Positions 5,890 to 31,134 are shown, counted from the first letter of the stretch. The stretch: DNA of 64,000 nt from Kordia sp. (GCF_965283645.1 NZ_CBDIPG010000002.1:124113-188112), one strand, 5' to 3'. The notes: a model not told the origin generated them from the sequence alone. A program made the numbers and translations.

Positions 5890-5997
5890 ACTTTACCGAA
5901 AAAATAAATATACGAAAAGATTAATGTTGGCAAAACTAGCATTGATCTTTTTTTAGCTTAAAAAGGTAAAATACAGTACAAATTATAGTGGAATCCC

Positions 5998-6005
5998 TAT
6001 ATTTG
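5998..6005 (+). promoter_or_regulatory. -7 promoter box for smpB
   Basis: TATATTTG 9 bp upstream of ATG 6015. Confidence 0.65.
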
Positions 6006-6014
6006 CGCTCATTT

Positions 6015-6473
6015 ATGCAAAAAAATATCAACATACAAAACAAGAAGGCGCGCTTTCAATATGAAATCTTAGATAAGTATACGGCAGGAATTGTCTTAAC
6101 GGGAACTGAGATTAAATCTATTCGAATGAGCAAAGCTTCTATTGCCGAAAGTTTCTGCGAATTTAACGAGCAAGGAGAACTTTTTGTGGTGAATATGTAT
6201 ATTGAAGAATATGCTTTTGGCACGCATTACAATCACCAACCGCGAAGTACACGAAAGTTGTTGTTGAATAAAAAAGAATTGCGAAGCTTAGAAAAAAGTA
6301 TCAAAAACGCTGGATTAACCATTGTTCCGTTGCGTTTATTCTTAAATGAAAAAGGATTGGCAAAATTATCTATTGCGCTTGCAAAAGGTAAAAAGATTCA
6401 TGACAAACGTGAAACGATGAAAGATCGTGACAACAAACGTAACCTGGATCGTATTAAGAAAAATTTCCGTTAA
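6015..6473 (+). CDS. smpB: SsrA-binding protein
   Basis: [39 protein letters not shown]; start at ATG 6015. Confidence 0.97.
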
Positions 6474-6541
6474 GTTTCTACTAGTTATTTACTGTATAAA
6501 ATCACGTCATTACGAGAATTTGTTCGCTCTAATCACATAAT

Positions 6542-6569
6542 TGTCATTCCTGCGAAGATAGGATTCCAT
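6542..6569. repeat. Degenerate REP-like hairpin
   Basis: GTCATTCCTGCGAAGATAGGATTCC is an imperfect palindrome beginning with GTCA. Confidence 0.35.
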
Positions 6570-6617
6570 TTTACTAGTAATTCACGAATTACTTTGCTTG
6601 CATTACGGAAAACCGCA

Positions 6618-6648
6618 TTGTATATGTGTGCATTTTGTTTTACATTTA
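6618..6648 (+). promoter_or_regulatory. Candidate array promoter (Pc-like)
   Basis: TTG-N20-TACATTTA (one mismatch to TAnnTTTG), pointing into the cassette array. Confidence 0.4.
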
Positions 6649-6653
6649 GGGGA

Positions 6654-6742
6654 AATAACAGGAAGTTTCGATAAAAATACTTCCTGTTATTGACTAAATT
6701 TAGTATGAAAACGGGAATTCCTGTTATTCATACGTTAGCTGC
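6654..6742 (+). other. attI-like leader site of the cassette array
   Basis: TTCCTGTTATT at 6681 and 6718, inverted copy at 6654-6664, then GTTAGCT at 6734; no folded left arm, unlike the other sites. Confidence 0.5.
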
Positions 6743-6758
6743 AAGCTGAAAAAATCAA

Positions 6759-7046
6759 ATGGAACCTGAATTAAAAAAATACTTGCTCGAACAATGTCGA
6801 GATTGGATGCTTAAAGAAGAAATCAAAGTATTAAACAGATTAGGATTAACAGAACACGGAGAGACGGTTACACGAAAAAATGCTTTAGTTGAATATAAAA
6901 TGGAATTGTTTTATGGGTTTCAAGACAAAAAAGTAAATGATTTAGTTTCTTTAGAAAAAACTCTTGTGGAAGAAAGAATAGCAGAACGTATATTAAATGA
7001 TAACCCCGATATTCTGAATAATTGCTCAAATTGTGGAAAATTATGA
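6759..7046 (+). CDS. Cassette A hypothetical protein, ends in a lone CxxC
   Basis: 95 aa ORF 25 bp after the GTT site. Confidence 0.6.
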   Translation: MEPELKKYLLEQCRDWMLKEEIKVLNRLGLTEHGETVTRKNALVEYKMELFYGFQDKKVNDLVSLEKTLVEERIAERILNDNPDILNNCSNCGKL

Positions 7047-7447
7047 CTACAGAACCAAGAGGAAGATTATATCAAGATTCTGAATTTGAATTCAATGAGT
7101 TTAACGGATTAAAAATAGAAAAACTAATTGTCTGTGAAAATCCAGAGACTAAAGAGCCTATACTTATTTATATTAAAGTGGAAAATAGAAATTGGCATCA
7201 ATTCTTTTTGGACGCAGGAATAGGGTTTTGGGAAAACTGGGACGAAATTGACATTGAGGATGATTCTTATGATTTCATTGATTTTACTGACAAATTTGAT
7301 TTAAAAAACAAAGTTATTAATAGAATATTCTGTAAAAAAGATTTAAATAATAGCAGAATAATATTAGAACTGAAAAGCAACGAAAAGTTGATTTTAAAAT
7401 GCAAAGAGCCAAATATATTTGATTCTGATTGTGAATTAATAATGTAA
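7043..7447 (+). CDS. Cassette A second hypothetical protein
   Basis: ATG 7043 overlaps the upstream TGA (ATGA); acidic protein. Confidence 0.65.
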   Translation: MTTEPRGRLYQDSEFEFNEFNGLKIEKLIVCENPETKEPILIYIKVENRNWHQFFLDAGIGFWENWDEIDIEDDSYDFIDFTDKFDLKNKVINRIFCKKDLNNSRIILELKSNEKLILKCKEPNIFDSDCELIM

Positions 7448-7456
7448 AAAAGGCCA

Positions 7457-7655
7457 GCAGGTAACAAGGTATAAAAAACATAGGGCGCTTTAGGCTTATC
7501 CGAAAGATCTGTGTGTATTTGCAAAGTCACCGAATATAAAATTTGGCGTTTATGAGAAAAAAGATAAAAGCAAAATATTTATATTTGGCTTAGTACCAAC
7601 TCGAAACGTATCGCTTATTACCTGCCCTACGTTTCTTATACTAGCCGTTGTGCGT
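7457..7655 (+). repeat. attC-like site 1 (long class, about 200 bp)
   Basis: GGTAAC-AAG-GTATAA-N6-TAGGGC ... GCCCTA-N6-TTATAC-TAGCC-GTTGTGC. Confidence 0.8.
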
Positions 7656-7688
7656 CATTTAAGAACACTCGAATAAAAAAAGAAAATT

Positions 7689-7892
7689 ATGACAAATTAT
7701 ATTAACTGTGATAAACCTGAAAGTCCTTTCGGAAGAATTGAATGTAATAATTGCGGAGCGAAATATGATTTTGAATTTGACTCAATAAAAGCACCTTACA
7801 AAGAAACAGGAATTTTAAAATGTGCTTGTGGAGTTGACTTGGTAAGATGGAATAGTACGACTGAACCATATTTGGTAAGAGTTAATGAATAA
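7689..7892 (+). CDS. Cassette B small zinc-ribbon-like protein
   Basis: CNNC and CAC motifs; 67 aa; overlaps the next gene by 8 bp. Confidence 0.6.
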   Translation: MTNYINCDKPESPFGRIECNNCGAKYDFEFDSIKAPYKETGILKCACGVDLVRWNSTTEPYLVRVNE

Positions 7893-8277
7893 AACATACA
7901 AAATACATCTGAATGGAATTCTAATTGGGACTTCTGAATTAGAAAAAGCTGATGCACCAATGGGAGTTGCATTTGGACTGATTGTATTTAACCGAATTGA
8001 ATCGCCATACGAATTCTTTAAAGAATACTGTTTGAAAAACAATATTGTTATAAATACAGACGACCCAGAATTTGAATTTATCGACACTCAAGTGATATCT
8101 GGTTTAAAAGTATTTAGACAAGATGGACTGGAAATAAAAGGAGTTGCTGGAAATGCAATTACAGGAATGAAAAGAGATGGATATGAAATTTCAATTTTAG
8201 GAATCAATTATCCTTTTTACGAAGAAGAATTTCCACATCACGTAAAGGAATATGAAAATTTGTTCGGAAAAGAATAA
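7885..8277 (+). CDS. Cassette B hypothetical protein
   Basis: 130 aa ORF ending just before ACGCACAAC. Confidence 0.7.
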   Translation: MNKTYKIHLNGILIGTSELEKADAPMGVAFGLIVFNRIESPYEFFKEYCLKNNIVINTDDPEFEFIDTQVISGLKVFRQDGLEIKGVAGNAITGMKRDGYEISILGINYPFYEEEFPHHVKEYENLFGKE

Positions 8278-8283
8278 AAACGA

Positions 8284-8423
8284 ACGCACAACACCGTGTA
8301 TAATTAATTGCTTTGGTCGTTGCCTATTTGGAAAATTCCTTCGGAATTTTCTCGCGTTCGTTTTTGTTTACTAAATTAGTTGCTCAAACACGCAACTAAC
8401 CATACACATCAACGTTAGGCTTA
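8284..8423 (+). repeat. attC-like site 2 (medium class, about 140 bp)
   Basis: CACAAC-ACC-GTGTAT ... ATACAC-ATCAAC-GTTAGGC; internal hairpins GAAAATTCC/GGAATTTTC and TTAGTTGC/GCAACTAA. Confidence 0.85.
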
Positions 8424-8454
8424 ATTAGAAAAACCCGAGAGACCAATTCCATAA

Positions 8455-9024
8455 ATGAAAATATTCCTTAAAATTCTTGGACAAATAATAGCACTCGGAA
8501 TAGTAATCTTTTTAGGAATATTATTGACTTGGGAACAAATTCCTGGAAATAAAAATATTTGTGATGCTGGTCAAGGACTTTACGGATTAGCTTGGTTGAT
8601 TTTCATAATTATTTCAATCGCTTTGTTTATAAATTCTTGGATTTTTCTAAATAAAAATAATTGGAAAAAATACCGAATTACTGTTATGATAATCTGTGTA
8701 CTTATCGTTTTAATATCGTTAACTCTAAGGTCTGTGATTTTTCAAGTATCATATGGAAAAGAAAAACATAAAATTGAAAATACCGAAAATTACAATCAGT
8801 TAATTGAAGTAAAACTTTATGAAAATGGAAAATTCTATTCTTGGACTTATGATATGGGTTGTCAATTAGAAAATATCGGAACATATAAATTGAATGGAAA
8901 TAAAATAACATTGGAATTTGGAAATGAAAAATCTGAATATTTAGGAACAGAATATCTAATCGAAAATGATAAAGTTGTCTGTAATAAAGGTTGTGATTAC
9001 GAAAACGAATTGAAAATAGAATAA
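8455..9024 (+). CDS. Cassette C membrane protein (3 predicted TM plus soluble C-terminus)
   Basis: Three hydrophobic stretches in the N-terminal half. Confidence 0.75.
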   Translation: MKIFLKILGQIIALGIVIFLGILLTWEQIPGNKNICDAGQGLYGLAWLIFIIISIALFINSWIFLNKNNWKKYRITVMIICVLIVLISLTLRSVIFQVSYGKEKHKIENTENYNQLIEVKLYENGKFYSWTYDMGCQLENIGTYKLNGNKITLEFGNEKSEYLGTEYLIENDKVVCNKGCDYENELKIE

Positions 9025-9030
9025 AATAAC

Positions 9031-9170
9031 TAAGCCTAACACCGTGTATAATTAATTGCTTTGGTCGTTGCTTATTTGGAAAATTCCTTCGGAAGTTTCT
9101 TGCGTTCGTTTTTGTTTACTAAATTAGTTGCTTAAAGACGCAACTAACCATACACAATCACGTTAGGCAC
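9031..9170 (+). repeat. attC-like site 3 (medium class)
   Basis: Near-identical to site 2: GCCTAAC-ACC-GTGTAT ... ATACAC-AATCAC-GTTAGGC. Confidence 0.85.
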
Positions 9171-9206
9171 AAGCAAAAGAAACCAACATTAACCAACTAT
9201 ATTAGA

Positions 9207-9608
9207 ATGAGTTTAGTTCAAATTGACAAACAAAAACTAATCGATACAGGATTTACGGAATCTGGTGTAAAAAGGTATGAAAATACTATTACAGAATATT
9301 CCCAAATACTATTCGATAAGTCTAAAAAATTCGGAGAAGCGCGAAAGGCCAACGATTCTGCGGTAGAAATAAATTATGAAAATGTTCAAGGAGCTGTGAA
9401 GGTAATTTCTTCAACATTCGCAGATGAAAAAATACCGAAATGGAAATTATGGGCTCAATCTGGTGAATATCTGATAACCGCACTTTGTGGTTATTTAGGT
9501 TCTCAAGCGACACAAGATAATGCACCAAGTCACTTCACAATATTCTTTGTAATATCTGCAGTTGTCGGAGTAGGTTTGTTTATCGTTAGAAAAACTTCAA
9601 AAAACTAA
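9207..9608 (+). CDS. Cassette D protein 1: putative histone-fold domain plus 2 TM helices
   Basis: FTESGVKRY..EYSQILFDKSKKFGEARK..EINYENVQGA pattern; hydrophobic C-terminus. Confidence 0.6.
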   Translation: MSLVQIDKQKLIDTGFTESGVKRYENTITEYSQILFDKSKKFGEARKANDSAVEINYENVQGAVKVISSTFADEKIPKWKLWAQSGEYLITALCGYLGSQATQDNAPSHFTIFFVISAVVGVGLFIVRKTSKN

Positions 9609-9612
9609 AAAA

Positions 9613-10122
9613 ATGAAAAAGTCAATAAAATACACAGATTCGGCTTCAAAAAAACTTAATAGTGTTTTGGAGAAAGTCAAAGAACAAATTGCTGATGATA
9701 TCGTTAATTCTAAAAATTATCCTGGAGAAGAACTTATTGAAATAACAGCTTCAGATATTGAAGAAACTTATCGCAGATTAAGCATACGGAATAACAAGTC
9801 AACATTTTACAGAAAAAGTAAAATGATAAGAATGATAATTCCTGTTTATTTTATTTTGGGTATTATGCTAACACTTTTTGGCATTTTTAGAAAAGATATT
9901 ATGGAATTAATTAAAAATGACAAAGAGGGTCTTATGTATTCACTAACAGGTTTTGTGATATCTCTAACTTCTGCTGCTATATTTTATCTATACAAAAATA
10001 AAGAGAATGAAAGAAGACGTGAATATGAAAAAGAACGTAGAAATCTAAGTAAGTGGATATCTGAAATTGATTTAGAAAAATATGATACTGAATTTCTGAA
10101 AGATGAAAATGCCAGTGCCTAA
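9613..10122 (+). CDS. Cassette D protein 2: putative histone-fold domain plus 2 TM helices and charged tail
   Basis: YTDSASKKL..EITASDIEET pattern; stop codon lies inside GCCTAAC of site 4. Confidence 0.6.
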   Translation: MKKSIKYTDSASKKLNSVLEKVKEQIADDIVNSKNYPGEELIEITASDIEETYRRLSIRNNKSTFYRKSKMIRMIIPVYFILGIMLTLFGIFRKDIMELIKNDKEGLMYSLTGFVISLTSAAIFYLYKNKENERRREYEKERRNLSKWISEIDLEKYDTEFLKDENASA

Positions 10123-10318
10123 CATCGTATAAAAACAATAGGGCAATTGTAGCAAAACCGAATGGTTTGGGCGCATTTGCAAGGTCGCCAAATTTTTAAA
10201 TTTGGCTTATTGAGAAAGAAAAAATAATAAGAAAAATTTAAAAATTCAGCTTGTGGCTCAACCGAATAGATAGCGTGCAAATCTGCCCTACTGTTCTTAT
10301 ACACAACCGTTATATATA
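10115..10318 (+). repeat. attC-like site 4 (long class)
   Basis: GCCTAAC-ATC-GTATAA-N6-TAGGGC ... GCCCTA-N6-TTATAC-ACAACC-GTTATAT. Confidence 0.82.
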
Positions 10319-10703
10319 ATTCAAAAAAAGAATCGGAGACATCCGTTAGAAAAGAGATTTTGGAACGATTTTATGTAGTTTTTAAAATCAATAGGTTTTC
10401 ATTTAAGTTTTTGTCAGTTACACTGTGAAAGACAGTTCTTTCAAACATTGTTAATGTACTCAAAAACTTGATTTAAGGTAGTAGATTTATTTGACAAAAT
10501 CAACTCTTTATAAAAAACGATAAAATCTAACGTTGTAAATGCTAAAAAACAGCACACGCCTTATACAAATATAAAGCGCATCCTTTTTTTTATTTCAAAC
10601 GGATTTCAATGCTCATTTGGGCTCTTTTTTGAACTCCTGTTTTTTACTTGAATTTAAGTTGTATTTTAGTTCAATAAAGAACGCAAAAAAACATATATAT
10701 AAC
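10309..10703 (+). other. Cassette E: apparently non-coding cassette
   Basis: Bounded by GTTATATATA and TATATATAAC; no ORF of 60 aa or more in the track. Confidence 0.65.
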
Positions 10704-10751
10704 ATTGTGTAAACCTGCATTAAAACGCAGTTTACACTTAACGTTACCTGC
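10694..10751 (+). repeat. attC-like site 5 (short class, 58 bp)
   Basis: TATAAC-ATT-GTGTAAACCTGC-8 nt loop-GCAGTTTACAC-TTAAC-GTTACCT, with one unpaired C in the left arm. Confidence 0.8.
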
Positions 10752-10770
10752 AAGCTGAAAAAAATTGAGT

Positions 10771-11460
10771 ATGACAAAAAACATTACACTTCTGATTTTA
10801 ATATTTATTATTTCAAGTTGCTCTGCACAAGAAAATTTTAGAGATTATTATTATCAAATTGGAACAAAAAAGGAAATCAAAGTTTACAAATATGTTGACA
10901 AAAACAATCCAAGGAATATTGAATATTGGAAAGTTACTACAAACCCGAAAACAAATAAAATTCTAACCGAATCTTTCACAACTGATTTTAGACTTTACAA
11001 TATATTCGAGGAAGAGCTGAAAACAAATGGAGCGGAAATAATTCGTTATGCAGATTTTGAGGTTAATGACGAAAAACAGAATATACGGATTGACGGAACG
11101 ATTGTCGATAAAGATGTTTATAAATGGAATGACACAAACAAATATATTTATTCAGTCAAATACACGAGTCCAAAATATGGAAATGAACAATTCATAAAAG
11201 AACGAACTAAAAATAGCTTTGAAAAAATAACTATTAGCGGAACTGAATATTCAACATTAAAATTTAAGGATGAATACGAGATTAAATCACTCGAAAATGA
11301 CCAGAACTATGAATTTCATCAATTTACCTATTACGCAAAGGGAATTGGAATGGTAAAATACCAAAGGTATCATCCAGATGGAGCAACGATTGAATTAGAA
11401 TTAACCGAAATCCTAACTGAAAAAGAATTTGATGAACTGAAAGAAAAAGCCAGCAGGTAA
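10771..11460 (+). CDS. Cassette F lipoprotein
   Basis: Lipobox ISSC; stop codon inside GGTAAC of site 6; start at ATG 10771. Confidence 0.8.
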   Translation: MTKNITLLILIFIISSCSAQENFRDYYYQIGTKKEIKVYKYVDKNNPRNIEYWKVTTNPKTNKILTESFTTDFRLYNIFEEELKTNGAEIIRYADFEVNDEKQNIRIDGTIVDKDVYKWNDTNKYIYSVKYTSPKYGNEQFIKERTKNSFEKITISGTEYSTLKFKDEYEIKSLENDQNYEFHQFTYYAKGIGMVKYQRYHPDGATIELELTEILTEKEFDELKEKASR

Positions 11461-11589
11461 CACCGTATATAATTCATTGCTAGTTATAGCCAGTTTACGA
11501 AAGTCCTCGCGGACTTTATTTGTCCGTAATTTTTTATAAATTAGGTGCTTAAAACACGCAACAAACCATATACAACAACGTTGCCATTA
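11453..11589 (+). repeat. attC-like site 6 (medium class variant)
   Basis: GGTAAC-ACC-GTATAT-N6-TTGC ... GCAA-N6-ATATAC-AACAAC-GTTGCCA. Confidence 0.8.
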
Positions 11590-11599
11590 ATTAGAACCT

Positions 11600-12442
11600 A
11601 TGACCAGAAACATTCCGAAAAAGGTAAGAGAAGCTTTAAGAAAAGAAGTCAATTTTGGATGTCCAATTGATGGTTGTGGCAGTCCTTATTTGAGTTATCA
11701 TCATTTTGACCCACCTTGGCATATTGAAAATCATCATAGACCAGAGGGAATGATTGCATTATGCCTCGAACATCACAAGCAAGCCGATTATAATGCATTC
11801 ACAGATGACCAATTAAAAGAATTTAAAAAAAATCCGTTCCTATCTTCAGATGATTCAATACAAGGTCAAATAAATTGGAAAAGAGAGAATTTAGTTTTCT
11901 TAATTGGGGGAAATGTTTTCATTGGAGCTCAAAATATTTATCTCAATAAACAAGAACAATTGTTGTGGCTCACTACTGATGAACAAGGTAATTCACTTCT
12001 GAATTTAGATATGAAATCCGAAAAGGGAGAATTGATTTTTTCATTACGTGATAATGATTGGTTGGTTATGTCCAATTTTGATAATATTGAAAGTATTCCG
12101 AGCGGAAAAAAATTATTCTTCGAAAATAAAACAGAAGATTTAAAAATCGATATTGAATTTAATAACTATTCAAAAGTCGACTTTCAAAAGAAATATGCAG
12201 AAGATATTCCAGCGAGGTGGATAGAGATAATTACAAATAAAATTGTTGCTGAACCTATCACAGTCTGCGTAATCAATGGTCACTTAACTTATCCTTTTGA
12301 AATTAGAATGGAATCAACAGGCACTACAATAAACGGAGAAGGAAGCGAGATTACTGTAATGGGAAGTCTAACTCTAAAAAATGTCAAGGAACACATAATG
12401 CAAAGAGGATTAGTTGTCGGAAGTGGAGTACTGATAAAGTAA
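11600..12442 (+). CDS. Cassette G protein with N-terminal HNH-type nuclease domain
   Basis: RKEVNFGCPIDGC..YHHFDP..MIALCLEHH. Confidence 0.75.
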   Translation: MTRNIPKKVREALRKEVNFGCPIDGCGSPYLSYHHFDPPWHIENHHRPEGMIALCLEHHKQADYNAFTDDQLKEFKKNPFLSSDDSIQGQINWKRENLVFLIGGNVFIGAQNIYLNKQEQLLWLTTDEQGNSLLNLDMKSEKGELIFSLRDNDWLVMSNFDNIESIPSGKKLFFENKTEDLKIDIEFNNYSKVDFQKKYAEDIPARWIEIITNKIVAEPITVCVINGHLTYPFEIRMESTGTTINGEGSEITVMGSLTLKNVKEHIMQRGLVVGSGVLIK

Positions 12443-12443
12443 C

Positions 12444-12647
12444 TAATGGCAACAATGTATATAAAAAATAACGCAAGTCGTTGCTAAAACAAAGGCTTGG
12501 GCATTATTTGGAAGTCGCCAAATTTTTCAATTTGACAATTTCCTAAAAATAAAATAAATAGTAAAATTTAAAAATTCGGCTTGTGTATAATCTGAAAAGT
12601 ATCGCTTACAACTGCCCTACTTTTCTTATACGGAGACGTTGGCAGTA
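12444..12647 (+). repeat. attC-like site 7 (long class, mismatched left arm)
   Basis: GGCAAC-AAT-GTATAT ... GCCCTA-N6-TTATAC-GGAGAC-GTTGGCA; centre resembles site 4. Confidence 0.75.
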
Positions 12648-12655
12648 ATACCGAA

Positions 12656-13744
12656 ATGAACATAGAATTAGAAAACCTACAATCGACTATAAAAAGGAAG
12701 TACAGTTTTAAATATAAACCTGAATTTTCTGAATCTTTCAAGACAGATATAAAAGACAACCAAATAATCCCATTAACTATTGAAGTTTTTGAAAAATTAG
12801 AATGGCCAATTGTCTTTAGAGACAATAAGTCAGTTGAAGCTAAAAGGAAAGGCGACTGGAATAAACTGACCGAAAAAATAACAATTACCAAAAAGGCTTC
12901 TGGTCGAATTGAGGTTCATAGTAAAACAATTGAAGGTAATTTCATTGATTTCGGAAAAAACTCTAAAAGAACTGGTTTATTCATTATTCTTTTTCAAAAG
13001 TTAGCTAAAGAATACCAAGAAAGCGGAAAACTCTCTGAATTAGAAACGGAGTTTGAAAAAGAAAACAGTTGGGCAGATTATGAAATTCCTTCAGAATTAC
13101 CAAAACCAAAAGAATTTGGAAAACCAAATTTAGTTCTTTCAATAATTGGAGGTCTTATTATCGCAATTCTGTTTGGAATATTAATTGCGTTTTTAACTAC
13201 AAAATTTACCTATTTCATTGGAATCTATGAATTCGCAATTGGAATCGGTATTGGATACTTCTTTGGTCAAGTTTTAAAGAAAACTAATTACATTGAGTTT
13301 AGATCAATTCAATTTATCATTGGAGGAATCGTGATTGTAATGTTTATAACGAATCTATTCACACAATATCAATTAATAATCGCAGAGAATAACATTTCAG
13401 AACTTAGCTTTTTTGAATTTATGAAACTGCGTTTTGAAGGCGGGTTAACAATAAAGGATTTAAATACAGGTTGGATTGGACTTACTTTAAGTTGGGTTTT
13501 TCAAATGGTTTTCCCTTACTTTTTAGCTGTCGGTAAAGTTGCAGGAATTACAGCAAATTATATTATTGAAAAAATTCCTGAAAAAGTACTTGAATATACA
13601 ATTTATCTTTTCGAAATGGAAAAGTCAGAAAGTGAAGTTAGAGCTGAATTAGCACAAAAAGGATGGAATAAAAAGTCTGACCAAGATAATGTTTTTAAAG
13701 CTATTGTCGAGATAAGTGGATTTCATCAAATGAACAGAGAATAA
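12656..13744 (+). CDS. Cassette H membrane protein (soluble N-terminus, about 4 TM)
   Basis: 362 aa with Gly-rich hydrophobic helices in the C-terminal half. Confidence 0.78.
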   Translation: MNIELENLQSTIKRKYSFKYKPEFSESFKTDIKDNQIIPLTIEVFEKLEWPIVFRDNKSVEAKRKGDWNKLTEKITITKKASGRIEVHSKTIEGNFIDFGKNSKRTGLFIILFQKLAKEYQESGKLSELETEFEKENSWADYEIPSELPKPKEFGKPNLVLSIIGGLIIAILFGILIAFLTTKFTYFIGIYEFAIGIGIGYFFGQVLKKTNYIEFRSIQFIIGGIVIVMFITNLFTQYQLIIAENNISELSFFEFMKLRFEGGLTIKDLNTGWIGLTLSWVFQMVFPYFLAVGKVAGITANYIIEKIPEKVLEYTIYLFEMEKSESEVRAELAQKGWNKKSDQDNVFKAIVEISGFHQMNRE

Positions 13745-13750
13745 AAGTAC

Positions 13751-13880
13751 TACTTGGCAACACCGTAAATAATTAATTGCTATTTATAATATACTTATGA
13801 AAACCCTCGCAGATTCTCTATTCATTTTTATTCGCCAAATTATATTCTTAAACAAATAATACACAAAACCATTACCAATA
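13751..13880 (+). repeat. Eroded attC-like site 8 (medium class)
   Basis: GGCAAC-ACC-GTAAATAATTAATTGC left arm aligns to sites 2, 3 and 6; right end reads ATTACC instead of GTT. Confidence 0.55.
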
Positions 13881-13886
13881 ATTAAG

Positions 13887-14282
13887 ATGAAGAAAATAAT
13901 TTTCATATTAACTTTGATATGCATATCTACTATTGGATTCAGTCAAACAGATTCAATTAAAGGAAACCAATTTGAACTAACGGGAAAGATTATCAATGAA
14001 ATTTCTTTAACTCCTCATTGTGGAAATTTTGCTTTCGGAACGGTCGTTGAATTTGAAATTATCGAATTTTCTGACTCCAATTATAAAGGTAGTTCTATAG
14101 GTGTGATTTTTACTTGTCCTGAATTCTATAAAAGTGGATTTTTTGAGATTGGAAAGACTTATACAATTACCATTGCTGATGAAAATCAAGCAGACTTCAG
14201 TTGGATTATTCCTAATGAATATATATTGAATAAATACAAGTTGGACAAAAAACTGTGGGTCATTGAAGCGAATAAGAAATAA
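13887..14282 (+). CDS. Cassette I-like secreted hypothetical protein
   Basis: Signal peptide MKKIIFILTLICISTIGFSQ. Confidence 0.75.
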   Translation: MKKIIFILTLICISTIGFSQTDSIKGNQFELTGKIINEISLTPHCGNFAFGTVVEFEIIEFSDSNYKGSSIGVIFTCPEFYKSGFFEIGKTYTITIADENQADFSWIIPNEYILNKYKLDKKLWVIEANKK

Positions 14283-14412
14283 TAAAATATGAAATCATAG
14301 TTCACTACGGCTGTTATGTTATATATACTAAACGTTACAAATTCCAAATACACAAAACCAAGCACATTCAAGATTTCCCAAATGTGCTCAACTTAAAATA
14401 TAGTAGTGTTTT

Positions 14413-17400
14413 CTAAACAACAACTTCCTCAGAAGTTTTCGATGTCAACTTTGTGAACTCTTGATTATCTTTCTGAAAATCTACCAATCGTGCAAAAAAC
14501 CAAATAAAGGCTTCTACTTGTCCGTTTAGCACAAATCTTCCACTAGAAATATGATCCAATACAGCTTGTATATCTAACGTTTGTAACGCAGTAAATGCTT
14601 CTTGATGTTGAATCCATACAGCACAAGAAGGCAAATCTGTGATGACTTCTGTATTTTGTGCTATATTTCCATCTTGTATAACAATTGTAATTGGCGTACT
14701 CTTTTCAGAAATACGCATGGAAATCGCAAGATTCGGTGTTGGGCGCGTAATTTGTGTCAACCAACGCTGCAAATACGAAGCAAACGTAGTTACCCAATAT
14801 TGAAGTGCTTCCCGCGTTACATTCACTTTTTCCTGCTTTTGTTCTTCAATAAGCATTTGCGCATCTATTTCGCGTTCAGCTTCAATAAGTGCTTCCAGCG
14901 TTTTATCAATATCTTTTCGCGTATGCGCTGCCGAACAAATAAATCGTAAACGTCCACGCCCAATTTCAACAATTGGATAGGTTACCGCCAAGGTTTGAAC
15001 GCCACGTTTGTACAAACTTTGCACAATAGCATACAATTTATCTTTATCGCCAAAATGTGGTGTGATAATTGGTCCGTCACCTGTGCCTAAATCATAGCCA
15101 GCTTCTTCAAATCGTCGGCGCATGTATCGTGTTCTGTCCCATAATTGTTCGCGTAGTTTTTCATCAGCGCGAAGCATTCTCAATGAAGTCAACGCTGCAG
15201 CAATATCTGCCGGACTGATAGACGCCTGAAATATATACGCTCTTGAGGATGCTTTTAACAAACCTATATGTTCACGACTCGCGGCAATAATTCCACCGAT
15301 ACTTCCCAACGCTTTGCTCAGTGTTGTCATTAAGAAATCTACATCTGCGGTTGCACCTTGTTCGGCACAAATTCCAGCTCCATTTTTTCCATAAAAACCA
15401 AAAGAATGTGCTTCATCTACAAACGTAAGTGCATTGTATTTTTTTGCCATACGCACAACTTCTGCTACAGGCGCAGTTCCTTCTCCCATACTATACACAC
15501 TTTCCAACACTACCAAAACTGTGCGATACGGAGAAACTTCTGTCTGTAACACTGCTTCTAAATCGTTTGCATCATTGTGTTTAAATGTTCGTATTTCGGC
15601 ACCGCTCAAACGCGCGCCATCTACTATGGAAGCATGACACAATTGATCGATAATGACAACATCATTTTTTCCAAGAATTCCAGAAATGGCACCTACATTT
15701 GCCGTGTAACCTGTGGGAAACAAGCAAGCATCTTCTTTTCCGACCAAATCAGCAAACTCTCTTTCAAAAGCTACATGCTGATTCGTCATTCCAGATGCCG
15801 ATGCAGAAATCCCCATTCCTGTACCAAATTTTTCCAAAGCGGCTGTCGCTTCTTTGATCACGTTGGCATCTCTATTTAAACCAAAATACAAGTTCGTAGA
15901 CCAAATAATTGCTTCCTGTTCTTCATCATTAAATGCATCACCAACTACACCTGTGGCGGCACTTCCAGTTCGTAATACTTTCCCGTAAGGATTTCTACGA
16001 TTGTCATTTACCATACGCAACACTTCCTGCACAAGCTTGCTTTTATCATCCGCGCTCCAAGCTGTTGCGTTTGCCGCTTGAAACGTTGGAAAACTCGCTT
16101 GAATATCAAATTGAAATTTCGCCAGCGTATCACTCATCACCTTGCACGGTTGATGTGTAGGTTGTGCTTCCACTCCATTGGTTGTTATGTTGGCAATATA
16201 AGTTGCCAAAGCATTTGCTGTTGGATATTCAAAAACCGTTGGCGCTGTGATCTTTTTTCCTAACGATTTTGAAAGTCTACTGCTAAATTCCAACGTAGTT
16301 AACGAATCGAGTCCGAATGCATCAAACGGTTGATTGGGTAAGATTTCTTTTGGATCGTTTATATTAAGAATCGTAGCAATTCCGCTTTGAATAGTAGCTA
16401 AAATGGCTTCTTTTAAGGAGTTATTTGAATTTTTAAAGCTTTCCAGCAGATTTTCCTCAGTAGTTTGTTTTGTCGATGGAGTTTGTGACAAACGCATGAG
16501 TTGCTTTCGATCAAGCTTATCATTTGGTAACAATGGCAATTCATCTAAATAATTAACAACTTGCGGCACCATATATTTTGGCAATCGTTCCGAAATGTAT
16601 GATTTGATGTTTTCCGTTGTAATTGATGCATCTTTCTTTACAACGTATACAACCAACATTTGTTGACCAATGCCGCCTTCAACAGCCGCAGCCGCTACAG
16701 CATCAATGCCATTCATTGATTCAAGTGTAGATTCAATTTCTTCGAGTTCAATTCGGAAACCTCTAATTTTCACTTGTTGATCAACTCTTCCCAGAAATTC
16801 AATTTCCCCATTTTCTGTCCAACGGCATAAATCGCCTGTTTTATACAATCTGTTATCTGGAATAGCTTCCGAAGGTGTAATTTCAATAAAACGTTCCTTT
16901 GTTTTTACTTCATCATATAAATAACCACGCGCCAATTTCGTTCCCGCAAGGTGTAATTCTCCAGCATCTCCATTAGATACAGGTTGTAAATTATCATTTA
17001 AAATATACGCTCGTGAGTTTGGAACTGACTTTCCAATTGTAATAACTTTTGCATCACGAGCAACTTCTGAAATCGTTGAATATACGGTATCTTCAGTAGG
17101 TCCGTATGCGTTTAAGACTCTTTCAACTGAATCATGTGCATACACTTGCTGCACCAATGAACGCTTTAGAGCTTCTCCTCCAAAAACAACACACTTTATA
17201 TTTTCAGGTAATATTTCTGTTGCCAATAATGCTTGTACTGACGACGGAACCATTACAAATGTTCGTACTTCATCTAACGCTGGAATTTTAGTCAATTCTA
17301 AAGCATTTTTTACTAATATTATTTTTCCACCAAGTGATAATGTTCCCATGATTTCCATCACAGACGTATCAAAACAAACAGATGCTGCAGCAAGCATTCC

Positions 17401-17985
17401 GTTCAATTCTTCATCACTAAATATTTCGCGTACGGAAGCACGCATTTCCACTATATTTTTATGCTCAACCGCTACACCTTTTGGTTTTCCTGTAGAACCT
17501 GAGGTATAAATTACATATGCCAATTCATTTTTAGATGCATGTATTTTTTCGTCTGAATGATTTCCGAGTTTGTCAATCCACAATACATTTTCAACTTCAT
17601 TACACAAATCCGCAGTAGCTTTTGTATCAACAATTGCAGCTTTCGATTTCGAATTTGTCAACATATATTTAATACGATCTTTCGGATATGCAGGATCTAA
17701 CGGAACATACGCGCAACCTGCTTGCATTACGCCTAGTAATGTTGCTACTAATTCCCAAGAACGATTCATACAAACACCAACTAATGATCTGGCTGTTACA
17801 CCACGATTTTTGAGTTCTCCAGCTACTTCATTGGCTTTTTTCATCAACCGTTGATACTCAATATTGAGTTCTCCGTCAATGATTGCTATTCGTTCTGGAT
17901 GTGCCAGCATTTGTTTTTTGATCAATCCACAAATTGTTATTTCTGGATTGTCTTCAATCTGTTGCATTAATGTATCCATTTTCAT
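14413..17985 (-). CDS. Standalone NRPS-like enzyme: adenylation - ACP - PLP-dependent alpha-oxoamine synthase - SCP2-like C-terminus
   Basis: YTSGSTGKPKG, NAYGPTE, YKTGDL and KIRGFRIEL (A domain); FGLDSL (ACP); DQLCHASIVDG, VDEAHS and TLSKALG (AOS); SGRFVLNGQ (SCP2-like). Confidence 0.88.
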   Translation of the reverse strand: MKMDTLMQQIEDNPEITICGLIKKQMLAHPERIAIIDGELNIEYQRLMKKANEVAGELKNRGVTARSLVGVCMNRSWELVATLLGVMQAGCAYVPLDPAYPKDRIKYMLTNSKSKAAIVDTKATADLCNEVENVLWIDKLGNHSDEKIHASKNELAYVIYTSGSTGKPKGVAVEHKNIVEMRASVREIFSDEELNGMLAAASVCFDTSVMEIMGTLSLGGKIILVKNALELTKIPALDEVRTFVMVPSSVQALLATEILPENIKCVVFGGEALKRSLVQQVYAHDSVERVLNAYGPTEDTVYSTISEVARDAKVITIGKSVPNSRAYILNDNLQPVSNGDAGELHLAGTKLARGYLYDEVKTKERFIEITPSEAIPDNRLYKTGDLCRWTENGEIEFLGRVDQQVKIRGFRIELEEIESTLESMNGIDAVAAAAVEGGIGQQMLVVYVVKKDASITTENIKSYISERLPKYMVPQVVNYLDELPLLPNDKLDRKQLMRLSQTPSTKQTTEENLLESFKNSNNSLKEAILATIQSGIATILNINDPKEILPNQPFDAFGLDSLTTLEFSSRLSKSLGKKITAPTVFEYPTANALATYIANITTNGVEAQPTHQPCKVMSDTLAKFQFDIQASFPTFQAANATAWSADDKSKLVQEVLRMVNDNRRNPYGKVLRTGSAATGVVGDAFNDEEQEAIIWSTNLYFGLNRDANVIKEATAALEKFGTGMGISASASGMTNQHVAFEREFADLVGKEDACLFPTGYTANVGAISGILGKNDVVIIDQLCHASIVDGARLSGAEIRTFKHNDANDLEAVLQTEVSPYRTVLVVLESVYSMGEGTAPVAEVVRMAKKYNALTFVDEAHSFGFYGKNGAGICAEQGATADVDFLMTTLSKALGSIGGIIAASREHIGLLKASSRAYIFQASISPADIAAALTSLRMLRADEKLREQLWDRTRYMRRRFEEAGYDLGTGDGPIITPHFGDKDKLYAIVQSLYKRGVQTLAVTYPIVEIGRGRLRFICSAAHTRKDIDKTLEALIEAEREIDAQMLIEEQKQEKVNVTREALQYWVTTFASYLQRWLTQITRPTPNLAISMRISEKSTPITIVIQDGNIAQNTEVITDLPSCAVWIQHQEAFTALQTLDIQAVLDHISSGRFVLNGQVEAFIWFFARLVDFQKDNQEFTKLTSKTSEEVVV

Positions 17986-30031: not shown

Positions 30032-30937
30032 ATGTCTAACTATCTTATTTCAATCGTTGGCGCAACTGCCATTGGAAAAACTGCATTGAGCATTCAATTG
30101 GCACAACATTTCAATACGGAAATCATTTCGTGTGATTCACGTCAGTTTTTTAAAGAAATGGCAATCGGAACTGCGGTTCCTTCCGAAGAAGAGCAAAATG
30201 CCGCACCACATCATTTTATTCAACACATTAGCATTTTTGATAATTATAATGTTGGACAGTTTGAAAAAGATGCTATTGCCAAACTTGACGACTTGTTTCA
30301 AACAAACAAAGTTGTCATTATGGTTGGCGGAAGTGGTTTGTATGTAGATGCCGTTTTGAAAGGTTTAGACGATTTTCCAAAGGTAGATCCTAAAATTAGA
30401 GAAACGTTAAATCAACAGTTAGAAACCGAAGGTATTACTTCTCTTCAAGATAAATTACAGGAACTCGATCCTGTTTATTATAAAAAAGTAGCATTGGAAA
30501 ACCCACATCGATTGATTCGTGCTTTAGAGATTTGTATTGGAAGTGGAAAACCATATTCGAGCTTTTTGAAATCTGAAACGACACAGCGTAATTTTACTTC
30601 GATTAAAATTGGGCTCACCGCAGACAGAGAAATTATATACGATCGTATTAACAGACGCGTTGAAATTATGATGCAAGAAGGTCTGTTGGAAGAAGCAAAA
30701 ACACTATATCCACATAAAACGTTGAATGCTTTACAAACCGTTGGTTACCGTGAATTGTTCAATTATTTTGATGGAAATTTCACGTTGGATGTTGCTATTC
30801 ATGAAATTAAGAAGAATACACGCCGATTTGCCAAACGACAAGGAACTTGGTTTCGAAGAGATGAAAACACGAATTGGTTTGATTATGAAGAAGATATTAA
30901 ACGTATTATTGAGAAAATTGAAAGTTTGATTTGTTGA
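30032..30937 (+). CDS. miaA: tRNA dimethylallyltransferase
   Basis: GATAIGKT, DSRQF, VGGSGLY, TRRFAKRQ.TWF. Confidence 0.96.
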   Translation: MSNYLISIVGATAIGKTALSIQLAQHFNTEIISCDSRQFFKEMAIGTAVPSEEEQNAAPHHFIQHISIFDNYNVGQFEKDAIAKLDDLFQTNKVVIMVGGSGLYVDAVLKGLDDFPKVDPKIRETLNQQLETEGITSLQDKLQELDPVYYKKVALENPHRLIRALEICIGSGKPYSSFLKSETTQRNFTSIKIGLTADREIIYDRINRRVEIMMQEGLLEEAKTLYPHKTLNALQTVGYRELFNYFDGNFTLDVAIHEIKKNTRRFAKRQGTWFRRDENTNWFDYEEDIKRIIEKIESLIC

Positions 30938-31134
30938 TTTGTGTATTTATTTATTTATTTGAAAATATATACTTTATTCAGAGTTTTGAATTTCTCGTAA
31001 TGACATTTTATTAGATTTTCAGCACGTAAATTCGAATGATTTTTTTTTAAATTTCACTCAGACTGACGGTTTGTATATTGAAGCACTCAACTACCAAAAT
31101 ACCAACAGTAAAACTAATACCAAAACCAAAAAAA

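Follow-up and report, generated by a model that had tools for sequence, protein, structure and literature searches.

Introduction

Clusters of attC sites that lie apart from any integron integrase gene have been defined as CALINs, attC-site clusters without integron integrases (Cury et al., 2016, PMC4889954). In Bacteroidetes, the 2016 IntegronFinder paper recorded only In0 elements (PMC4889954) and the 2022 IntegronFinder paper one complete integron, in Salinibacter, while integrons have also been described in archaea (Ghaly et al., 2022, PMC9668308). The integron integrase IntI is set apart by a specific insertion that is essential for integron function (Smyshlyaev et al., 2021). Here we analyze a stretch of 64,000 nucleotides from Kordia sp., of the Flavobacteriaceae (C2:124113-188112; "the window" hereafter), in which an array of co-oriented gene cassettes stands between smpB and a convergent biosynthetic gene. 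We consider it very probable that this array is a satellite, without a recombinase gene of its own, of a non-canonical integron-like cassette system.

A first-pass annotation, made from the sequence of the window alone, had proposed an integron-type cassette array in a phylum where integrons are rare, and had raised the idea of a distinct system with its own recombinase. The rarity agrees with the IntegronFinder papers, and the array is borne out by units bounded at G|TT, by the complementarity of each unit's start to its own end, by compensatory changes in the stems of the sites and by a variable smpB locus. A distinct system also appears to be present, since no protein of the genome reaches the IntI models and arrays with the same sites follow the gene of a 428-aa tyrosine recombinase. 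The genome consists of two contigs (C1 and C2) that together make up 5.77 Mb with 33% G+C, and it is 99.98% complete.

Cassette Boundaries and the Array Head

The gap between smpB and the convergent gene measures about 7.9 kb and contains short, co-oriented open reading frames (ORFs) of the plus strand, with structured non-coding stretches between them. The array itself extends from 6734 to 14336 and comprises eight or nine co-oriented cassettes, seven intact sites, one degenerate site and a terminal remnant. As is typical of attC sites, the seven intact ones are imperfect AAC...GTT palindromes (45-191 nt), each of which closes its cassette, and all share the grammar AAC-N3-GTRTA...TAYAC-N5/6-GTT around a variable center. 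The sites of the window were read from the sequence itself and confirmed by repeat and pattern analysis. For generic scans, arms were scored without gaps and with controls for strand and position; this took the place of a hairpin scan based on duplex energy, which was dropped after returning dozens of false positives in coding DNA and missing 1 true site.

At the intact junctions of the window, the 9 nt that begin with GTT are the reverse complement of the 9 nt that end with the AAC of the next site, and all 9 positions match in 6/6 cases. This complementarity of start to end is the classical argument for integron cassettes. It implies that each unit was once a circle with a single palindromic site, opened at G|TT, and from the sequence we infer a crossover at that point with a hybrid R' box. 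When all neighboring detected sites were considered, those of other arrays and other genera included, 30 of 49 pairs were joined in this way; most failures concern neighbors separated by more than 1.9 kb, between which the strict pattern probably missed a site. Randomly paired ends reach at least 8/9 in 6% of trials, and in only 2 of 63 sites does one end match the other.

The array opens with an attI-like head on the plus strand (6540-6736), which is composed of a hairpin, a core and the G|TT point and contains no recombinase gene. The hairpin, AATAACAGGAAGT..ACTTCCTGTTATT, is located at 6654-6693, and the core, GAAAACGGGAATTCCTGTTATTCATAC, is followed by G|TT at 6734-6736 (core plus GTT, 6706-6736). 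At E ≤ 0.001, no tyrosine recombinase was found in the 64-kb window or on contig C2.

The Recombinase and the Other Arrays of the Genome

Using BLAST, we located the same three classes of sites in four further clusters on C1, at 24-31 kb (minus strand), 194-204 kb, 1266-1284 kb and 5514-5531 kb. Each of the last two is preceded by a recombinase gene, with the array starting about 100 nt beyond its stop codon, at ...TATACATAC|GTT. The gene codes for a 428-aa tyrosine recombinase with PF13495 and PF00589 domains; its two copies (C1:1264570-1265856 and C1:5512573-5513859) share 99% identity over 1463 nt. The sequence GAAATAACAGGAACTTTTAGTAAAAGTTCCGTATATACATAC|GTT follows the gene, and from GTT onward the two copies run into different cassettes. 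The arrangement is that of an attI site: a conserved palindrome and then TACATAC|GTT lie 3' of the gene, and the first cassette begins at GTT. The motif ATAACAGGAAC was also observed twice around copy 1, once 5' of the start codon (C1:1264500-1264570) and again in the attI-like site (C1:1265900-1265961).

The core of the window head, GAAAACGGGAATTCCTGTTATTCATAC, resembles the GAAATAACAGGAACTTTTAGTAAAAGTTCCGTATATACATAC|GTT sequence found 3' of the recombinase gene, and the window hairpin carries the same AACAGGAA motif as the recombinase-linked head, the gene itself being absent. Besides the one in the window, heads of this kind without a recombinase occur at C1:193.9 kb and C1:31.2 kb. The stretch just 5' of the recombinase start codon, TATTTGGTATGATAACAGGAAC, is similar to what precedes the core in the heads. 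These heads look like platforms from which the recombinase gene may have been deleted between repeated motifs.

The most repeated cassette of the genome is the ORF-less cassette 5 of the window, of which there are five full copies, 90-96% identical, as well as partial copies, across all arrays. Further copies are found at C1:1265958-1266395, which is directly 3' of recombinase copy 1, and at C1:5516034-5516469, 5519007-5519443 and 30678-31077. Cassette 5 is conserved in other Kordia species at 75-88% identity, and no Rfam family matched it; it may carry a promoter or another regulatory element. It ends in a minimal site of 45 nt. An array from Bacteroidales was seen to contain a 44-nt site with the same ATTAAAAC loop and a different stem (L071:12510).

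Variation at the smpB Locus

Comparison of the locus downstream of smpB among relatives, which the first-pass annotation had named as a check on its reading, revealed that order and content vary at GTT boundaries and are not invariant. The smpB flank is kept in all 18 congeners searched (18/18). Among species with both flanks on a single contig, three have an empty interval, made up of about 50-150 bp and a plain terminator; in one it measures 0.9 kb and has an unrelated gene inside; and in six others it spans 2.7, 3.3, 5.5, 9.8, 11.4 and 13.7 kb. The longer intervals hold the conserved head and attC-like sites. Similarity of the relatives to the window ends exactly at the GTT of the head and the conserved flank sequence restarts at about 14340, and none of the cassette ORFs of the window was found in the smpB-locus arrays of the relatives. 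Two further assemblies with identical SmpB, whose flanks are 90-95% identical, have one DUF2200 cassette in common, and all their other units differ.

In the congeners we identified five full-length orthologs of the recombinase (77-83% identity) and five cases of pseudogenes or fragments. The largest smpB arrays belong to the three species with an intact recombinase and both flanks on one contig (G010, G014, and G016), and species without the recombinase have either no array at this locus or a short one. Five cassette ORFs of the window (7022-7447, 8455-9024, 10765-11460, 12656-13744 and 13887-14282) have homologs elsewhere in other Kordia genomes, with 65-77% nucleotide identity. We rejected these homologs as proof of cassette transfer, as their loci have no recognizable flanking sites; they may hint that cassettes are recruited from the gene pool of the genus itself.

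Of the explanations that compete with ours, the one that survives best is that of a dead fossil, a system that once worked and that is now inactive at this locus or in the genome as a whole. Sites 8 and 9 are degenerate (GTT to ATT), the head junction matches at 8/9, and several congeners have only recombinase pseudogenes, or decayed sites at the smpB locus. Against this, the two 99% identical copies of the recombinase are intact and retain all catalytic residues, six consecutive junctions are perfect, and copies of a non-coding cassette are still 90-96% identical across all arrays, so we take the fossil explanation to be a serious one that is nonetheless improbable. As for the satellite array that we favor, its activity at the present day is a point on which we are less confident than on its nature.

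Predicted Folding of the Sites

We aligned 34 sites of 118-130 nt, drawn from Kordia and at least seven other lineages. In the bottom-strand alignment, RNAalifold recovered one stem of 17 pairs beside the AAC/GTT boxes, which is 96% paired, and two-sided changes were observed in 15 of the 17 pairs. None of the shuffled controls reached any of five stem measures (0/500), and when the partners were slid by 1-3 columns pairing was 26-47%. One stem pair is a G.T in 33/34 sites and another in 24/34; the top strand would give A.C mismatches there. Calculated with DNA parameters, stability is higher for the bottom strand in 26 of 30 sites of the genome. Spacers of 3 nt on the 5' side and 5-6 nt on the 3' side produce an asymmetric internal loop between box and stem. 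In this respect the sites depart from the canonical attC geometry, in which spacers measure about 5 nt on either side and the L box has extrahelical bases. Their 17-bp stem is continuous, conserved G.T pairs stand where extrahelical bases would be usual, and a single unpaired base is present in the 45-nt class only. The 3' 60 nt of the 127-nt sites (8356-8416 and 9104-9164) can also form a hairpin of their own, GTTTACTAAATTAGTTGC / GCAACTAACCATACAC, like the minimal 45-nt site, and this local hairpin is the fold that the DNA energy model prefers.

A second alternative accepts the same system and assumes that its sites are recognized as duplex DNA by a Xer-like enzyme, as dif, loxP and pdif are. 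The best score of the recombinase is with XerA, whose substrate is duplex dif, and the helix with which IntI reads extrahelical bases is missing from the Kordia enzyme; moreover, single sites folded with DNA parameters are not strongly better than shuffles. However, classes and lineages have wholly different stem sequences in which two-sided changes maintain the pairing, and a protein that recognizes duplex half-sites would preserve the sequence itself and not its complementarity. A strand bias is also seen in the mismatches, with 132 arm positions that pair only on the bottom strand (G.T) vs 18 that pair only on the top strand in 63 unique sites, and arms of at least 17 bp placed 8-150 nt apart are unlike the 28-34-bp core sites of Xer or Cre. 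Recognition of duplex half-sites does not easily account for the combination of strand bias and complementarity that outlasts a full turnover of the sequence, and we regard this alternative as unlikely. In the cassette system that we propose, the sites most likely act as folded bottom single strands, as integron attC sites do, a claim we hold somewhat less firmly than the identification of the array.

Kinship of the Recombinase

The recombinase exceeds the cut-off of NF040815 (XerA-type) by one bit, with 221 bits against 220, and remains below those of both IntI models: it scores 188.1 bits with TIGR02249 (IntI, cut-off 265), where only model positions 7-170 and 240-314 are matched, and 134.1 bits with NF011946/PRK15417 (cut-off 435). 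The XerC and XerD models give 183 bits. By sequence and fold its closest structures are XerA 5HXY and VchIntIA 2A3V, and its kinship to XerA and to IntI is about equal. The alignment to 2A3V skips IntI residues 201-246, where the Kordia protein has 6 residues, and the IntI-specific insertion, which in IntI belongs to the catalytic domain, is absent from 19/19 aligned family members. The catalytic R, K, HxxR, H, and Y are present and are invariant across the aligned members. Residues within the IntI insertion reportedly contact the extrahelical bases of attC. Because separate Xer-like genes of ordinary size, coding for 304-331 aa, exist in the genome, the 428-aa recombinase is not the housekeeping Xer.

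The N-terminus of the recombinase, about 135 residues, folds in the model into two beta-beta-alpha-beta-beta-alpha repeats with a W..K.W.(I/L)P(Y/F) motif (predicted local distance difference test, pLDDT, about 75-90), for which Pfam gave no family match. The module of about 65 aa occurs in two copies in Kordia, in three in relatives from Cytophagales and Chitinophagaceae, and in one in others. The repeats may bind the repeated AACAGGAA motifs of the head.

These features bear on a third alternative, namely that we are dealing with an ordinary CALIN, whose canonical attC sites were left behind, or are served, by a classical IntI. The architecture fits the CALIN definition, one in two known CALINs comes from a genome that has no IntI (Cury et al., 2016, PMC4889954), and some R boxes of the window are canonical, such as GCCTAAC...GTTAGGC at 9033-9168. 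Yet no protein of this 99.98%-complete genome reaches the cut-offs of the IntI models, none outscores the 428-aa recombinase, and the best matches do not have the IntI insertion. The geometry of the sites is consistently different (3 vs 5-6 nt, a long continuous stem and conserved G.T pairs), and in many genomes arrays lie directly 3' of a non-IntI recombinase gene, with an attI junction that is backed by complementarity. We therefore think an ordinary CALIN very unlikely.

Association of Recombinase and Arrays Across Bacteroidota

Outside this genome, co-oriented sites with the same grammar and with boundary complementarity were found 3' of the recombinase gene in 7 of 8 related loci, which comprise the five Kordia orthologs and three homologs with 36-40% identity (one from Kordia and two from other genera of the family). 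In these loci, too, the first cassette starts at a GTT shortly 3' of the recombinase gene. A generic scan of 33 loci from Flavobacteriales, Cytophagales, Chitinophagales, Saprospirales, Sphingobacteriales and Bacteroidales yielded a downstream density of 2.97 sites per 10 kb on the strand of the gene vs 0.08, 0.40, and 0.28 in three control compartments. A phylum-wide sample supplied 20 loci that belong to complete genomes; of these, 16 had at least one downstream site and 12 at least three, and boundary complementarity joined neighboring sites in 10/20. Among them, four homologs of about 285-320 aa that belong to one family (f45), probably housekeeping Xer proteins, had 0, 0, 0, and 1 downstream sites. 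A census by recombinase similarity alone returned 132/401 Bacteroidota genomes at E ≤ 1e-45, a figure that we rejected as a measure of prevalence, as it overcounts by taking in the f45 homologs of about 285 aa without arrays.

Several further observations concern the spread of sites and recombinases. A distant homolog with an open frame of 518 aa (G282:C1:534600-547400) is followed by 12 sites in 9 kb, mostly of 67 nt and about 375 nt apart, which makes for a very compact array of tiny cassettes. Many metagenome contigs stop within a few hundred bases 3' of the recombinase gene, as is expected if array repeats break assemblies; surveys of metagenome assemblies would thus under-count these arrays. 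A DNA search of a plasmid collection with the 127-nt site matched only two plasmids, CP116296.1 and CP116298.1 of Tenacibaculum finnmarkense, whose sites are 77-79% identical to the 127-nt class. Plasmids NZ_AP025317.1 and NZ_AP025319.1 of Fulvitalea axinellae code for homologs of the recombinase (51-55% identity), annotated as xerA "site-specific tyrosine recombinase/integron integrase." The system therefore occurs on plasmids too.

Within the Kordia genome, the strict site pattern has 64 matches on both strands of the 5.77 Mb, about 30 of which fall in five clusters and 7 within 5.2 kb of the window array. The generic grammar gives 0.32 matches per 10 kb and strand genome-wide vs 5 in 4.1 kb of the window array, and this clustering is not due to chance. 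The last alternative, that the sites are REP- or MITE-like repeats (repetitive extragenic palindromes or miniature inverted-repeat transposable elements) or terminators whose cassette look is coincidental, can be practically set aside: the sites are indeed hairpins right 3' of stop codons and could also terminate transcription, but boundary complementarity holds in 6/6 window junctions and 30/49 pairs overall against 6% of random ones, a genome-wide check for the REP-like dispersal that the first-pass annotation had considered found the sites clustered in five arrays instead, on one strand downstream of the recombinase they are about 7-37 times as dense, and the empty sites of relatives carry only a simple terminator.

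Anatomy of the Array and Its Flanks

The first-pass annotation had counted about nine units of one or two short, co-oriented ORFs and eight folded sites in three size classes. Both counts stand, with ORFs that start 16-45 nt after GTT and with seven of the eight sites intact and one degenerate; when the 7-nt R boxes are included, the classes measure 58, about 140 and about 200 nt. Its observation that two stop codons are the TAA of a site's TAAC also proved correct, at 10120-10122 in cassette 4 and 11458-11460 in cassette 6. No significant family was found in Pfam, NCBIfam, or PADLOC for any cassette ORF of the array, and several of the products are small membrane or secreted proteins.

All cassettes are on the plus strand. 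Cassette 1 (6735-7647) carries two ORFs, at 6759-7046 (95 aa) and 7022-7447 (141 aa), and a 187-nt site (7463-7649); 8/9 positions agree between its start, GTTAGCTGC, and its own R'', GTTACCTGC, read as reverse complement. From cassette 2 to cassette 7 the complementarity is 9/9 throughout. Cassette 2 (7648-8414) has ORFs at 7689-7892 (67 aa, zinc-ribbon-like) and 7885-8277 (130 aa), followed by a 127-nt site (8290-8416). In cassette 3 (8415-9162) a single ORF at 8455-9024 (189 aa) codes for a membrane protein, and the 127-nt site (9038-9164) is the one with the canonical-looking boxes mentioned above. Two ORFs are again present in cassette 4 (9163-10309), at 9207-9608 (133 aa) and 9613-10122 (169 aa), with a site of 191 nt (10121-10311). 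Cassette 5 (10310-10743) is the ORF-less unit, 434 bp long, with its 45-nt site at 10701-10745. Cassette 6 (10744-11580) contains an ORF at 10765-11460 (231 aa), whose product has a signal peptide or is lipoprotein-like, and a 124-nt site (11459-11582), and cassette 7 (11581-12638) one at 11600-12442 (280 aa) with a Cys/His-rich N-terminus and a 190-nt site (12451-12640).

The distal end is less well preserved. Cassette 8 (12639-13871) codes for a membrane protein of 362 aa (12656-13744) and ends in a degenerate site (13759-13873), in which GTATA has become GTAAA and GTT has become ATT. The 5' half of this site is 76% identical to the site at 11456-11513 (repeat analysis, family D6), and the cassette is decaying, since the complementarity of its start to its own end is only 6/9. 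The distal unit 9 (13872-14336), with an ORF at 13887-14282 (131 aa, lipoprotein-like), ends in a 3' remnant of the form TATAC-TAAAC-GTT (14324-14336), which is the end of the array.

Upstream, the insertion locus is flanked by smpB (5988-6473, plus strand), identified by a PF01668 SmpB match on the identical 152-aa product; its true start is likely the ATG at 6015. The downstream neighbor, convergent to the array, is an A-ACP-aminotransferase gene at 14413-17985 (1190 aa). No tRNA or tmRNA gene was found in the window, and an Rfam scan gave no match at gathering thresholds, only a single miRNA match at chance level (E = 0.1).

Discussion

We propose that an attI-like head without a recombinase gene was inserted between smpB and the convergent biosynthetic gene, and that it would account for the whole stretch from 6540 to 14336. 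Each cassette would be a former circle made of an ORF, an ORF pair or a non-coding segment plus one attC-like site, and cassettes would enter and leave through G|TT recombination, in which the head or an attC-like site is paired with another attC-like site. The putative catalyst is the 428-aa tyrosine recombinase encoded elsewhere in the genome, which would act in trans on the window array. Its substrate would be the folded bottom strand, with the 17-bp covarying stem, the G.T wobbles and the asymmetric loop of 5-6 x 3 nt.

Several points weigh against this proposal and should be considered together. The case for recombination itself is built on sequence. The link between recombinase and sites is an association, one of adjacency and co-occurrence only, and the candidate enzyme is without the insertion that IntI needs for attC recombination. 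Single-sequence DNA folding gives modest z-scores, from -1.1 to -3.0, and in the 127-nt class the minimum-energy fold favors local hairpins over the long stem; the long stem is singled out by covariation and not by such folding alone. The sites used for the covariation and wobble counts are related by descent, and the selection pattern fixes five of the stem positions. Finally, with its two distal sites and its head junction (8/9) degenerate, the array may be partly fossil.

Beyond Kordia, we think it rather likely, if with less assurance than for the array itself, that Bacteroidota own a phylum-wide counterpart of the integron. This would consist of an insertion-less recombinase, related to Xer and IntI and equipped with N-terminal modules, of folded bottom-strand sites of distinct geometry, and of several platforms per genome, heads served in trans included; the tpnF-tet(X3) region, which is described below, would be a fragment of such a platform. 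If this is true, a machinery for cassette capture in a major phylum of oceans, soils, and guts has been missed by current tools, because these require the IntI insertion and the canonical attC geometry, and the system could explain the near-absence of Bacteroidota integrons in surveys. It would also constitute a natural experiment on how a tyrosine recombinase reads folded single-stranded DNA without the IntI helix, and would open a large pool of uncharacterized cassette genes. Moreover, there would be consequences for our view of how mobile resistance genes derived from Bacteroidota arose, among them tet(X), next to which tpnF/xerD, of this recombinase family, is found. The genome studied here is a good model for such work, with five arrays, two intact copies of the recombinase and three heads without one, and so is the smpB locus, as both its empty and its filled states are found among cultured Kordia species.

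Comparison With Known Systems

No description of this system was found in open-access papers and bioRxiv. A hint does exist in public annotation, where the NCBI name of NF040815 is "site-specific tyrosine recombinase/integron integrase." Archaeal XerA, or NF040815, is the best match of the recombinase core by both hidden Markov model (HMM) and structure. However, XerA works on duplex dif, where it resolves dimers of the chromosome, and no cassette array goes with it, whereas the Kordia protein barely passes the NF040815 cut-off, bears an N-terminal extension, and heads arrays. The pdif modules of Acinetobacter plasmids are likewise discrete gene modules bounded by sites of Xer-type tyrosine recombinases. 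Their sites are 28-bp duplex XerC/XerD sites in alternating orientation, with 6 bp of spacer between the half-sites, that are used by the host Xer, whereas those of Kordia are directly oriented hairpins of 45-191 nt with covarying stems and a dedicated recombinase.

Like a CALIN, the window array has no recombinase gene inside or adjoining it, and it contains two or more sites. It differs in that it opens with a conserved attI-like head, in that its sites are non-canonical, and in that the cognate recombinase genes are encoded elsewhere in the genome. It looks like a platform that lost its gene or never had one, and not like a piece broken off an array.

The closest parallels are with classical integrons, sedentary chromosomal ones above all. 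In both, the platform consists of a recombinase gene, an attI-like site, and promoterless co-oriented cassettes, and the cassettes end in imperfect palindromes of variable length with ..AAC and GTT.. ends. The presumed G|TT crossover, the complementarity of the cassette start to the far end of its own site and a sequence bias toward folding of the bottom strand are also common to the two, as are cassette genes that are mostly ORFans and a content that diverges highly between species. As in the "inverted-integrase" chromosomal integrons of the Treponema and Chlorobium type, the integrase gene and the cassettes have one orientation. Unlike IntI, the Kordia recombinase is without the IntI-specific insertion and stays below both IntI HMM cut-offs, and recombinases of its type bear 1-3 extra N-terminal repeat modules. 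The sites differ in their spacers (3 vs 5-6 nt), in the continuous 17-bp stem and in sizes that reach about 200 nt, and one Kordia genome holds several platforms, some of which are recombinase-less heads.

A last comparison leads to a resistance gene. The tpnF (xerD) product, of 221 aa, shares 58% identity with the Kordia recombinase over residues 198-427 of the latter, and its gene lies about 190 bp upstream of tet(X3), co-oriented with it, on a plasmid of Acinetobacter indicus (NZ_CP041297.1, 4028-6200). There, tet(X3) is preceded by a hairpin and GTT, and its stop codon is followed by GCTACTAAC-AAG-CAGTTTTGCAATAGTGGGGC, similar to the 5' half of an attC-like site. The presence of tpnF next to tet(X3) and tet(X5) in ISCR2 units is known, and it has been taken as a neighboring recombinase gene (PMC7722449). 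This region differs from the Kordia arrays in its truncated tpnF, in its location in Proteobacteria, in its movement by ISCR2 and in a start-to-end complementarity that is not intact. The comparison suggests that part of a cassette platform from Flavobacteriia was taken up by ISCR2.

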